DNA of 10,049 nucleotides from a virus (Duplodnaviria; Heunggongvirae; Uroviricota; Caudoviricetes): IMG/VR virus record IMGVR_UViG_2690316311_000018, one strand, 5' to 3'. Positions 2,452 to 5,070 of the stretch are shown here, piece after piece. The position numbers were made by a program, and so were the translations under genes. The notes beneath the pieces are model-generated. The model saw nothing but the letters and a program-made list of their open reading frames with translations. It was not told where the DNA came from and searched no databases. The number at the start of each line of letters is the position of its first letter. The stretch's first letter is position 1.

Positions 2452-2911
2452 TCAACGCAAGGCGTTCCTCGATATGCTGGCGTGGTCAGAGGGAACAGAT
2501 AATGGACGGCAGAAAACCAGAAATCATGGTTATGACGTCATTGTTGGCGGAGAGCTATTCACTGATTACTCCGATCATCCTCGCAAACTTGTCACGCTAA
2601 ACCCAAAACTCAAATCAACAGCCGCCGGACGTTACCAGCTTCTTTCCCGTTGGTGGGATGCCTATCGTAAGCAGCTTGGCCTGAAAGACTTCTCTCCCAA
2701 AAGCCAGGACGCTGTTGCGCTGCAGCAGATTAAAGAGCGTGGCGCTTTGCCGATGATTGATCGCGGTGATATTCGTCAGGCAATCGACCGTTGCAGCAAT
2801 ATCTGGGCTTCACTGCCGGGCGCTGGTTATGGTCAGTTCGAGCATAAGGCTGACAGCCTGATTGCAAAATTCAAAGAAGCGGGCGGAACGGTCAGAGAGA
2901 TTGAGGTATGA
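2435..2911 (+). CDS. R: Endolysin R (lambda R-type lytic transglycosylase), 158 aa
   Basis: ATG at 2435 overlaps the end of S. GGAG at 2423-2426. Product [24 protein letters not shown]..., recalled as near-identical to lambda R. Confidence 0.92.
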
Positions 2912-3345
2912 GCAGAGTCACCGCGATTATCTCCGCTCTGGTTATCTGCATCATCGTCTGCCTGTCATGGGCTGTTAATCATTACCGTGATAACGCCATG
3001 ACCTACAAAGAGCAGCGCGATAAAGCCACATCCATCATCGCTGATATGCAGAAGCGTCAACGTGATGTAGCAGAACTCGACGCCAGATACACAAAGGAGC
3101 TTGCTGATGCTAACGCTACTATCGAAAGCCTTCGTGCTGATGTTTCTGCTGGTCGTAAGCGCCTGCAAGTCGCCGCCACCTGTGCAAAGTCAACGACCGG
3201 AGCCAGCAGCATGGGCGATGGAGAAAGCCCAAGACTTACAGCAGATGCTGAACTCAATTATTACCGTCTCCGAAGTGGAATCGACAGGATAACCGCGCAG
3301 GTTAACTACCTGCAGGAGTACATCAGGACTCAGTGCCTGAAATAA
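2908..3345 (+). CDS. Rz: Spanin inner-membrane subunit Rz (i-spanin), 145 aa; lambda-like N-terminus, divergent periplasmic domain
   Basis: ATGA overlap with the R stop (2908-2911). N-terminal transmembrane segment [20 protein letters not shown], then a charged, likely coiled-coil region. The first ~30 aa match lambda Rz as I recall it; the remainder does not. Confidence 0.85.
3107..3292 (+). CDS. Rz1: Spanin outer-membrane lipoprotein subunit Rz1 (o-spanin), 61 aa, embedded in the +1 frame inside Rz
   Basis: ATG at 3107 with AAGGAG at 3094-3099 (7-nt spacing). Product [33 protein letters not shown]...: signal peptide with a V-S-A-C lipobox and a proline-rich mature part. The ORF track begins this frame two codons earlier at TTG 3101. 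Confidence 0.8.
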
Positions 3346-3376
3346 TTTTTTTGCAAATCACAAAGTCCATTTAATG

Positions 3377-3401
3377 AGCCTCGCGATGCGGGGCTTTTTT
3401 T
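3377..3401 (+). terminator. Rho-independent terminator downstream of Rz
   Basis: Stem GCCTCGC (3378-3384) / GCGGGGC (3388-3394) with one G-U wobble and a 3-nt loop, then TTTTTTT (3395-3401). Confidence 0.65.
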
Positions 3402-3550
3402 ACATCTGAATTTCACAGCGCATCTCACGCGCATATTACATCACCCGAGCCTTTCAGAAAGTTGAGCCTGAGAACTGCCGTATATGGTGGCGACCATCTC
3501 GGGGCGGCTTTTCTGTGAGACAGGCTCACTTTCTAAAAGGTAAAGACGCT

Positions 3551-4069
3551 ATGAATCATCAATTGGCTAATCTCGATTTCCGGGACATGGTGGTTGTTTC
3601 TGGTGATCGCGTGATCACAACCTCCCGCAAGGTAGCAGCTTACTTCGACAAGCAGCATCACCACATCATTCAGAAAATCGAAAAGCTAGACTGTTCGGAT
3701 GAATTTCTAACCAGCAACTTTTCGCGGGTTACCTATGAACACAAGGGTAATCAGTATGTTGAATATGAAATTTCCAAAGACGGTGCGATGTACATCATCA
3801 TGTCGTTTACCGGCAAAAAAGCTGCCGCCATCAAAGAGGCGTTTATCAAAGCATTTAATTGGATGCGTGACAGGCTGATGGAGATGGCTCACTCATACCA
3901 AAGAGAGCACAACGAGTTAATGCTGGAGTTCATGAAGGAAAAGGATGTTGCCAGTATGTCAGGACGCTTGCTGAACCGCTGGGGCAGGATCAAAAAACCG
4001 CAACTCATAGCAAGAATCAAAAGGCTTGAGCAGCAGGCGCAAATATCGATCCCCGGACTGCCAAAGTGA
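3551..4069 (+). CDS. Phage regulatory protein Rha-family (N-terminal Rha domain), ~172 aa
   Basis: Product MNHQLANLDFRDMVVVSGDRVITTSRKVAAYFDKQHHHIIQKIEKL... fits the Rha-domain N-terminal pattern. Start placed at ATG 3551 (weak AAGG upstream); the ORF track's longer version begins at GTG 3515 with no ribosome-binding site. The P22 gene order places rha just after the lysis genes. Confidence 0.7.
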   Translation: MNHQLANLDFRDMVVVSGDRVITTSRKVAAYFDKQHHHIIQKIEKLDCSDEFLTSNFSRVTYEHKGNQYVEYEISKDGAMYIIMSFTGKKAAAIKEAFIKAFNWMRDRLMEMAHSYQREHNELMLEFMKEKDVASMSGRLLNRWGRIKKPQLIARIKRLEQQAQISIPGLPK

Positions 4070-4352
4070 CCATTCCAAAGCCCATCTACGGGTGGGCTTG
4101 ATAATGAAACCGTGATTTACATCCCCACAATCCGGGTATGTAAAAGATAGTTCAGGCGAGAACAGATTTAACTAAATCTGTGCACCACCAGTTACGGCAG
4201 TACCGCGAAACAACCCAAGCCAGTAAGTGGGGAAATAACACTGGCAGCCACTGAAAGATGAACCTCCAGCCTTATGGCAAAAAAGATTCTTTGTGGTGGC
4301 GAACTGATGGAAAGACATCCTAATCAAGCAACCACTCTACAGGGTCATAATT

Positions 4353-4724
4353 ATGAACGACCAGCAAATCGAAAAAGAAATCGTTGAGAAAGGCAAAACG
4401 GCACCGCGAGTTACGCCAGACCATATCGAAGGAATTATTGCTCAGGAGGCATATTTCACAGCAGAGGATGGTGCCTTTGGCAAAGCCATAAAAGCGAAAC
4501 ATACTGGCGGAGAGGTAAACTACCAGTCGCACGAATCACTTTCTCTGCTGACGTTCTGCGTCCTGGTGCTGCGCAACGGCTTCACCGTCACCGGAGAGAG
4601 TGCCTGTGCAAGTCAGGAAAATTTTGATGCAGAAATTGGTCGGAAGATTGCCCGGCAGAATGCTGTAAACAAAATCTGGATGCTCGAAGGTTACTTGCTG
4701 AAGCAGAAGCTAAGCGAACAGTAG
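4353..4724 (+). CDS. Small phage protein, Gp49-like (N4 gp49 / Sf6 gp66 family), function unknown
   Basis: 123-aa ORF with AGGG 9 nt upstream. Family assignment is from memory of proteins found between lysis and terminase genes in P22/Sf6-like phages; not verified. Confidence 0.55.
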   Translation: MNDQQIEKEIVEKGKTAPRVTPDHIEGIIAQEAYFTAEDGAFGKAIKAKHTGGEVNYQSHESLSLLTFCVLVLRNGFTVTGESACASQENFDAEIGRKIARQNAVNKIWMLEGYLLKQKLSEQ

Positions 4725-4827
4725 TTATTACAAAAGCCATTCCTTACTGAGTGGCTTTGATAATGGCTTATACCCTACACGGGATAACTTAACTGATATC
4801 CCTTTTAACGGATAAACGGAGCCAACA

Positions 4828-5070
4828 ATGGCAGAGATTATTCCCATGACTGAAGAACAGAAATTCCAGTTAGAGATTTACAAACTGGTCATGAACCAGA
4901 ACGCAGCCGCGGAGGAAGCATTTCAGTTCATTGGCACTGACGAGCTGAAGCTTGAGCTATTCAAAATTCACTTCCAGTCAGGTGGCGCTAATTCAGATAT
5001 CACGACCCGCACAATCGAAGCGGTGCGTAAATCGAAGGAAGCGTTAGACCTGTTCACTACCGGAGCGTAA
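4828..5070 (+). CDS. Hypothetical small acidic phage protein, 80 aa
   Basis: ATG at 4828 with GGAG at 4816-4819. Same orientation and tight spacing as the neighbouring genes. No family recognised. Confidence 0.55.
   Translation: MAEIIPMTEEQKFQLEIYKLVMNQNAAAEEAFQFIGTDELKLELFKIHFQSGGANSDITTRTIEAVRKSKEALDLFTTGA

Follow-up and report, generated by a model that had tools for sequence, protein, structure and literature searches.

A 10,049-nucleotide (nt) stretch of Caudoviricetes DNA (IMG/VR record IMGVR_UViG_2690316311_000018; this whole stretch is called the window below) represents the late region of a lambdoid prophage of the P22/Sf6 type. It carries two hairpins, hp1 and hp2, each followed by GATAATG, the first behind a Rha-family gene and the second behind a gene of the gp49/Sf6-gene-66 family. 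These two hairpins are copies of one conserved cis-acting RNA structure that lambdoid phages carry on their late transcript, which is antiterminated by Q, and that is under selection on the + strand. The same hairpin is the invariant right-hand wall of two hypervariable accessory slots. It behaves as the fixed start of the downstream DNA while the genes upstream of it vary; its edges are points where homology between phages is lost, and the sequences on its left and right occur in mixed combinations.

The two hairpins of the window

Both elements are built from an inner stem-loop and a short outer helix, the 3' strand of which lies in GATAATG.

4071-4106, + strand: hp1 element (sequence, RNA fold, covariance model, homology island)
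4078-4086 and 4091-4099, + strand: hp1 inner stem, AAGCCCATC with GGTGGGCTT, loop TACG, followed by GATAATG at 4100-4106
4071-4074 and 4103-4106, + strand: hp1 outer helix, CATT with AATG, an internal loop lying between the two helices
4726-4765, + strand: hp2 element (sequence, RNA fold, covariance model)
4733-4742 and 4749-4758, + strand: hp2 inner stem, AAAGCCATTC with GAGTGGCTTT, loop CTTACT, followed by GATAATG at 4759-4765
4726-4730 and 4761-4765, + strand: hp2 outer helix, TATTA with TAATG, separated from the inner stem by a CA/GA internal loop

As RNA of the + strand, hp1 folds with -18.4 kcal/mol (z-score -4.2) and hp2 with -15.8 kcal/mol (z-score -3.8), and on that strand the covariance model of the family scores them at 57.1 and 60.0 bits respectively and matches nothing else in the window. 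The relaxed motif AAAGCC-N8-14-GGCTT-N0-1-GATAATG likewise has just two matches in the window, hp1 and hp2, where none is expected by chance (200 shuffles). The first-pass annotation, which had reported two such modules behind the stop codons of the Rha-family open reading frame (ORF; TGA, 4067-4069) and of the gp49/66-family ORF (TAG, 4722-4724), was accurate on both positions and also on the lack of a U-tract. Its stem of about 9 base pairs (bp) describes hp1 (9 bp, 4-nt loop), whereas the stem of hp2 has 10 bp and a 6-nt loop (4733-4758). The description of the downstream bases is corrected here, hp1 being followed by TTGATAATG and hp2 by TTTGATAATG. Neither hairpin is called by consensus terminator and promoter scans of the window, a generic repeat finder did not pair the two because their loop lengths differ, and Rfam 15, searched with the whole window at E<=1, gave no match at 4070-4830.

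Covariation and the strand of the structure

Using an alignment of 48 distinct variants (14 pairs, 671 sequence-by-pair cells), we obtained a family structure that reads 5'-CAUUA / CA / 9-10-bp GC-rich stem-loop / GA / UAAUG-3', in which the hairpin loop is variable and the CA/GA internal loop is nearly invariant. Standard pairs are formed in 98.2% of the 671 cells, versus 33-51% after a shift of the 3' partners by 1-3 columns; changes on both sides are seen at 7 of the 14 pairs, an outer-helix pair included, and the observed values of pairing and covariation were attained in none of 500 shuffles. The inner stem is AAAGCC/GGCTTT in hp2 of the window, GAGGCC/GGCCTC in P22, GAGACC/GGTCTC in epsilon34 and ACAGGC/GCCTGT in one contig, all compensatory to one another, and pairing is also kept in the AAGCGTCTC/GGGGCGCTT stem of a Citrobacter prophage. 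In the outer helix, the pair nearest the loop passes from A-U through G·U to G-C as GATAATG becomes GACAATG; since this pair covaries with the hexamer, GATAAT is a paired strand.

G·U pairs occupy 74 of the 671 cells (11%); read from the opposite strand, these would become A·C mismatches. The + strand folds more stably in 40 of the 48 variants. This excess of G·U and the better folding of the + strand point to a structure selected on the sense strand, most simply in the late mRNA. The proposal that the module is a binding site on DNA for a phage regulator does not agree with these counts, as 11% of the paired positions are of a type that is possible on the + strand alone. Rare hp2 variants, in the contig L097 and one other IMG/VR contig, have the CA/GA loop closed to give a perfect palindrome (CATTATCAAAGCC...GGCTTTGATAATG); they fit the family pattern on both strands.

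Distribution across lambdoid phages

A 50-nt query containing hp1 matched 147 phage records (P22-like, HK97/HK022-like, ES18 and Stx-converting phages) and a query from the hp2 region matched 128, nearly all of these matches lying in unannotated intergenic DNA. In phage 2B8 and Stx2 phage 1717 a single site is matched by both queries, and hp1 and hp2 are therefore variants of one family. Of 5426 complete E. coli genomes, 1246 (23%) contain hp1, at a median of one place per genome. The covariance model, built from the 48 variants, was applied with filters switched off to 84 kb of DNA, made up of the window and 18 loci of reference phages. It gave 30 matches of 50-63 bits; every one is on the + (late-operon) strand and lies in the interval that separates the lysis genes from the terminase, and each phage has one or two.

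Contexts were studied on 231 instances, drawn from reference phages and from contigs of IMG/VR, and no locus among them has more than two copies. The hairpin starts within 2 nt of a stop codon in 92 of the 231 and within 15 nt in 40 further cases, while the remaining elements stand behind a canonical T-tract terminator (immediately 3' of it in about 40 instances) or behind a 126-bp conserved block described below. The expectation that the intergenic module would recur in related phages is therefore supported: it is present in P22/Sf6-like and many other lambdoid phages, usually 0-15 nt past a stop codon, and the search of related phages, which had been proposed as a check, found it consistently intergenic, neither absent from these phages nor scattered over coding sequence. 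Its association with two accessory genes holds in the window and is not general, as hp2 also occurs in phages that lack a gp49-like gene or directly behind a canonical terminator.

A search of the genome collection for distant DUF2560 loci (DUF2560 being the gene downstream of hp2) yielded one diverged locus only, in a Citrobacter sp. prophage (L295 1036-1500). It carries a diverged hairpin, AAGCGTCTC-TACT-GGGGCGCTT-GATAATG, directly 3' of the TAG of a 133-amino-acid (aa) ORF that is unrelated to Rha or gp49, and 27 nt upstream of a DUF2560 homologue of just 45% identity. The presence of the hairpin at this locus makes the element older than the E. coli and Salmonella phage sequences that dominate the sample.

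The hairpin as a boundary between variable and constant DNA

The features that surround the two hairpins are the following.

3376-3401, + strand: canonical intrinsic terminator after the Rz gene, 9-bp GC-rich stem and T-run
3515-4069, + strand: Rha-family gene, cargo of accessory slot 1 (Pfam Phage_pRha and ORF11CD3)
4107-4193, + strand: variable spacer that opens with a conserved AAACCG; at least three alternative versions in other phages
4194-4319, + strand: ultraconserved non-coding block of 126 bp, between both hairpins in every two-hairpin locus
4320-4724, + strand: cargo of slot 2, consisting of the gp49/66-family coding sequence and a 33-nt leader
4353-4724, + strand: coding sequence of the gp49/Sf6-gene-66 family, accessory slot 2 (Pfam Phage_gp49_66)
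4766-4827, + strand: conserved leader GCTTATACCCTACACGGGATAAC... between hp2 and DUF2560
4828-5070, + strand: DUF2560 gene, known as P22 orf80, HK620 hkbM and Sf6 gene 67 (Pfam DUF2560)

The layout is thus slot 1, hp1, spacer, 126-bp block, slot 2, hp2 and the DUF2560/terminase leader, where slot 1 is the interval between the post-Rz terminator and hp1, and the DUF2560 gene opens the conserved downstream packaging module. Loci with two copies invariably run from hp1 through the spacer and the block to the second hairpin, with or without cargo before it. This second hairpin is of the P22 type if slot 2 is empty and of the hp2 type if cargo is present.

The comparison of the window by BLAST with 17 reference loci gave five recurring homology breakpoints, at 4064-4071, 4106-4119, 4185-4194, 4319 and 4724, and in 11 of the 17 comparisons hp1 stands as an isolated island of homology (4064/4071-4106/4119). 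The flanks were counted on 119 instances for which the hairpin sequence had been the sole search criterion; they fall into 14 clusters on the left and four main types on the right, in well mixed combinations. About 15 unrelated protein families adjoin the hairpin on its upstream side, whereas its right-hand partners are essentially two, either AAACCG with the spacer (in three variants) leading to the block, or the DUF2560 leader beginning with GCTTATACC. This leader follows the hairpin in 148 of the 231 instances, and in 32 of the 119 when ascertainment is by the hairpin alone.

Slot 1 holds hkbK/hkbL, a gene of the Sf6 gene-65 type, GIY-YIG, KilA-N or others in other phages, and slot 2 is occupied in other contigs by at least five alternative, unrelated small genes (45, 56, 72, 80 and 110-126 aa). 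The gp49-like gene of the window is a clean indel (4320-4723) in comparison with HK022, HK97, HK620, P22, epsilon34 and APC_JM3.2; in these six phages the equivalent of position 4319 adjoins that of 4724, so that a hairpin at the hp2 position stands directly 3' of the 126-bp block. In Stx2-1717 and 2B8 the block is absent and hp1 is fused to the right flank of hp2 exactly after GATAATG. On the left, slot 1 is closed by the post-Rz terminator, which is itself a mosaic joint and a recurrent homology breakpoint (3376/3377), and in minimal phages a hairpin of the hp2 type with the DUF2560 leader follows directly 3' of this terminator. A third place of insertion, which goes with the hairpin's 3' edge, is that of the pid moron of P22: the moron is inserted just after hp2 and GCTTATACC (BK000583 2533-3192; window equivalent just past 4774) and is encoded on the opposite strand with its own promoter and Rho-independent terminator (PMC8835761).

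A second small hairpin is visible in the DUF2560 leader at 4779-4806 (GGGATA-ACTTAACTGA-TATCCC, then TTTTAA). In leaders of the ST64T type and in that of Citrobacter this piece of 35 nt is missing, and only about 27 nt separate the main hairpin from the start codon.

Proposed function

We favour, with a probability of roughly 45%, the reading that the hairpin is a punctuation signal for the processing or stability of the late mRNA and at the same time a conserved island for the exchange of cassettes. The hairpin would act on the mRNA, through RNase III-like cleavage at the CA/GA internal loop, as a barrier to exonucleases, or both, and such punctuation could let the packaging and head segment downstream differ in stability from the lysis and accessory segment. 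Of the functions suggested in the first-pass annotation, a processing site is thus the most plausible. Recombinants that arise by illegitimate or short-homology events might then survive only when their joints lie at the 5' edge of the hairpin or just past its 3' edge; joints would pile up at the hairpin because it and the DNA downstream of it have to stay intact, which would make it a de facto cassette linker.

Several observations weigh against this reading. The total helix of 14-15 bp is short for a classical substrate of E. coli RNase III, which typically comprises about two helical turns of double-stranded RNA, often with an internal loop where cleavage occurs. The hairpin is confined to a single locus, where a general stabiliser might be expected after other late genes too, and this is also compatible with common descent together with some other local function. 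The transcriptome tables of the P22-like prophage BTP1 contain no separate RNA or non-coding RNA between rha and pid, and the hairpin is not mentioned in the paper on the P22 pid locus (PMC8835761). As regards the structure, the covariation controls remove the relatedness among the sequences only in part, and GAYAATG, on the 3' side, varies less than the 5' strand with which it pairs, a difference that pairing alone does not account for.

Among other explanations, we consider it unlikely, if worth attention, that the hairpin is a leaky intrinsic terminator within the operon, which would stop transcripts not modified by Q (for example those from accessory-gene promoters in the lysogen) and be read through by the Q-modified polymerase. 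The GC-rich stem-loop right behind stop codons suits such a role, the inner stems of 9-10 bp with loops of 4 and 6 nt are within the usual stem and loop limits, the record of phage Ayreon labels an hp2 homologue "terminator", hp2 is followed by UUUGAUAAU if A-U pairs are excluded from its stem, and intra-operon terminators have been reported in P22-like late operons (PMC8022706). Yet a U-tract is wanting, with only two T among the 8 nt past the 9-bp stem in hp1, two in hp2 and one in the P22 type, and hairpins of the P22/HK97 type are followed by GACAAUGG. The bases that would have to form the U-tract are paired in the covarying outer helix, the scan makes no call at the hairpins although it finds the post-Rz terminator, and the roughly 40 instances mentioned above already stand directly behind a canonical T-tract terminator. 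The curated records of P22, Sf6, HK97, epsilon34, ES18 and HK106 annotate other terminators and not the hairpin; the "terminator" features that underlie matches in HK106, epsilon34 and ES18 proved to be the T-tract terminator that follows Rz. A canonical intrinsic terminator is excluded for the hairpin family as a whole.

An improbable explanation is a DNA recombination site, either of an attC-like or IS200/IS605-like kind or as a short homology linker at which phage annealing recombinases swap cassettes of a gene and its hairpin. The layout does resemble a cassette array, with units of gene, hairpin and GATAATG in direct repeat, the hybrid joints between hp1 and the right flank of hp2 fall exactly after GATAATG, flanks reassort freely, and the "boundary sequences" of lambdoid phages, which the Sf6 record marks as bsq features, are a precedent. 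Neither an integron-type integrase nor a Y1 transposase is encoded in the window, however, where the scanned ORFs have ordinary phage functions, and the hairpin has no core of the GTTRRRY type and is limited to one locus with at most two copies. The marked asymmetry between left contexts (at least 14) and right ones (two modules) fits selection acting on random joints better than symmetric exchange, and the compensatory changes indicate that the fold itself is selected, which a patch of homology does not need.

That GATAAT serves as the -10 element of a sigma-70 promoter from which the genes 3' of it are transcribed, the hairpin then acting as an attenuator or insulator upstream, is highly improbable, and the pairing of the module with a promoter, suggested in the first-pass annotation, was not upheld. 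GATAAT agrees with TATAAT at 5 of 6 positions, the key -10 positions A2 and T6 are invariant in the 48 variants, variation is confined to the least critical position, the third (T/C), and the 3' strand is conserved more than its pairing partner. Against this, the scan makes no promoter call, and finds at neither site a -35 element at 16-18 bp or the TGn of an extended -10. GATAATG supplies the 3' side of the covarying outer helix, in which the T/C change follows the pairing partner (most copies of the HK97/HK022/HK620 type have GACAAT), and the spacer and -35 region would fall inside a hairpin arm that changes by compensatory substitution. A promoter-probe assay and differential RNA sequencing at the P22 pid locus gave the pid promoter alone, on the other strand (PMC8835761).

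Finally, an operator-like palindromic DNA site for a dimeric phage or host protein, such as Rha or IHF, is the least credible of all: the element is an imperfect palindrome (a perfect one in the rare variants with CATTATCAAAGCC...GGCTTTGATAATG) and a Rha-family regulator is encoded just upstream of it in the window, but the hairpin is present in phages without rha (Sf6, HK620, ST64T), its stem is free to vary in sequence if pairing is kept, and the G·U pairs make the DNA half-sites unequal. For IHF, the match is limited to the ATCAA half of the consensus, and this site was rejected.

Whatever its function, the hairpin is unannotated in the reference records of P22, HK97, Sf6 and Stx phages, which are model or medically important phages. 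It offers a testable landmark for how a 20-kb antiterminated late transcript is subdivided for the differing expression of lysis, accessory and structural genes, and for why mosaic joints and new accessory genes (Rha, KilA-N, GIY-YIG, gp49-like, pid) cluster at one spot. The hairpins mark two natural "landing pads" that tolerate foreign genes, and constitute a simple signature of sequence and structure by which accessory cargo can be found in prophages.

The 126-bp block between the hairpins

The 126-bp block is 94-99% identical in 159 phage records (P22, HK97, HK022, Sf6, HK620, ST64T, epsilon34, BTP1 and others) and is far more conserved than its neighbours, its last 44 nt (4276-4319) being almost invariant. 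No codon periodicity was found in any candidate frame, with variable sites distributed 9/15/11 and 2/8/4 over the codon positions. Three coding readings, namely a 21-aa ORF at 4259 and an ORF from 4274 on the + strand and an ORF of 43-51 aa on the minus strand, were rejected because the start codon is lost in HK022, third positions show no excess of changes, and several copies contain indels of 1-2 nt. The short "hypothetical proteins" annotated across the block in some records, and an N-terminal extension (ST64T orf118), look spurious. The block is non-coding but probably functional, either as an RNA or as a DNA element.

The interval from hp1 to hp2 folds better on the + strand (z-score -5.0) than on the minus strand (-2.45), while covariation within the block is uninformative, as its predicted helices never vary. 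In the record of phage L, a minus-strand terminator is predicted inside the block.

The two hairpins could conceivably be processing signals that release the block and spacer as a discrete structured late non-coding RNA in P22, HK97, HK022, Sf6, HK620, ST64T, epsilon34 and others, although we regard this as a long shot. It would imply an unrecognised non-coding RNA gene, and genes that enter slot 2, between the block and the second hairpin, would simply be carried along in that processed unit. The block may be more intriguing than the hairpins themselves.

Comparison with known elements

The hairpin is a structured motif, previously unlabelled in several model phages, of which the general kinds (intra-operon hairpins, moron terminators, boundary sequences) are known. 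It is unannotated in the records of P22, Sf6, HK620, HK97, HK022, ST64T, epsilon34 and ES18, that of Ayreon alone carrying the "terminator" label; it is not described in the epsilon34, phage L, P22 pid or BTP1-transcriptome papers, and a search of the literature with sequence strings returned unrelated primer matches only.

With the intrinsic terminators of lambdoid late operons, moron terminators included, it shares a sense-strand GC-rich stem-loop right after a gene in an antiterminated operon; it differs from them in having no U-tract, in the outer helix that uses those bases, in the CA/GA loop and in its frequent position behind a real terminator.

Phage hairpins that serve in processing or retroregulation are exemplified by the intercistronic RNase III sites of the T7 R1.1 type and by lambda sib/tI, where the lower helix of sib forms only in read-through transcripts. 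Our element is similarly a hairpin with an internal loop between cistrons of a read-through transcript, the outer helix of which can form only after the polymerase has passed the inner stem. In contrast to these hairpins of about 20 bp or more, it has 14-15 bp, and it shows no similarity to them in sequence.

The lambdoid "boundary sequences" bsq1-7 were reportedly described by Clark et al. (2001) in the HK620 genome paper. Being a short conserved sequence at a reassorting module junction, the hairpin is a boundary sequence in that sense; unlike the bsq elements, it is located in the late operon and has a selected secondary structure rather than conserved sequence alone. It is not among the bsq features annotated in the Sf6 record, where bsq7 lies inside gene 63 (Rz) and nothing is marked at the hairpins, and it is likewise unannotated in HK620. 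The Sf6 bsq7 (L005 1978-2025; window 2968-2990) contains CATTACcgtGATAATG, which corresponds to both strands of the outer helix without the inner stem-loop, and the window has CATTACCGTGATAACG at this position, within coding sequence, which may be coincidence.

Like the attC sites of integrons, the hairpin is an imperfect palindrome found in direct repeat 3' of promoterless cassette genes. Unlike them, it comes without an integron integrase in the window and without R/L core boxes or GTTRRRY, in at most two copies at a single locus and with a structure in the mRNA sense. Repetitive extragenic palindromic (REP) sequences and bacterial interspersed mosaic elements (BIME) are also intergenic stem-loops of operons and can protect upstream mRNA from 3' exonucleases, but they are chromosomal with hundreds of copies per genome, whereas the hairpin is phage-borne, in one or two copies at a fixed position, and unrelated in sequence.

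Other features of the window

The lysis and late-control genes upstream of slot 1 are the following.

246-1055: Q antiterminator gene (Pfam scan)
2128-2451: holin gene (Pfam scan)
2435-2911: endolysin ORF, assigned by position, with no Pfam match
2908-3345: Rz gene (Pfam scan)

The post-Rz terminator (GAGCCTCGCGATGCGGGGCTT and a T-run) lies 31 nt downstream of Rz, within the late operon, was called by the terminator scan at 3376-3396, and is annotated in the epsilon34, ES18 and HK106 records. After DUF2560 the gene order is small terminase of the Sf6 type, large terminase and portal of the P22 type.

The interval between Q and holin (1056-2127, about 1.07 kb) is without a long sense-strand ORF. 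No tRNA or tmRNA was found by a scan of the window; this gap is devoid of tRNA genes, whereas Sf6 has them at the same site, and two tmRNA-like Rfam matches at 1450-1553 have E values of 0.03-0.045, far under the gathering score. A likely late promoter (TTGACT-17-TAAATT) is located at 1098-1126, and the gap further holds several hairpins that resemble terminators, with examples on each strand, as well as a perfect 16-nt inverted repeat (1851-1866 and 1925-1940) and a direct repeat (about 1339-1401 versus 1590-1690), the copies of which have AACAGGTAAGAGCATT and ACYGAGTGCTCTT in common.

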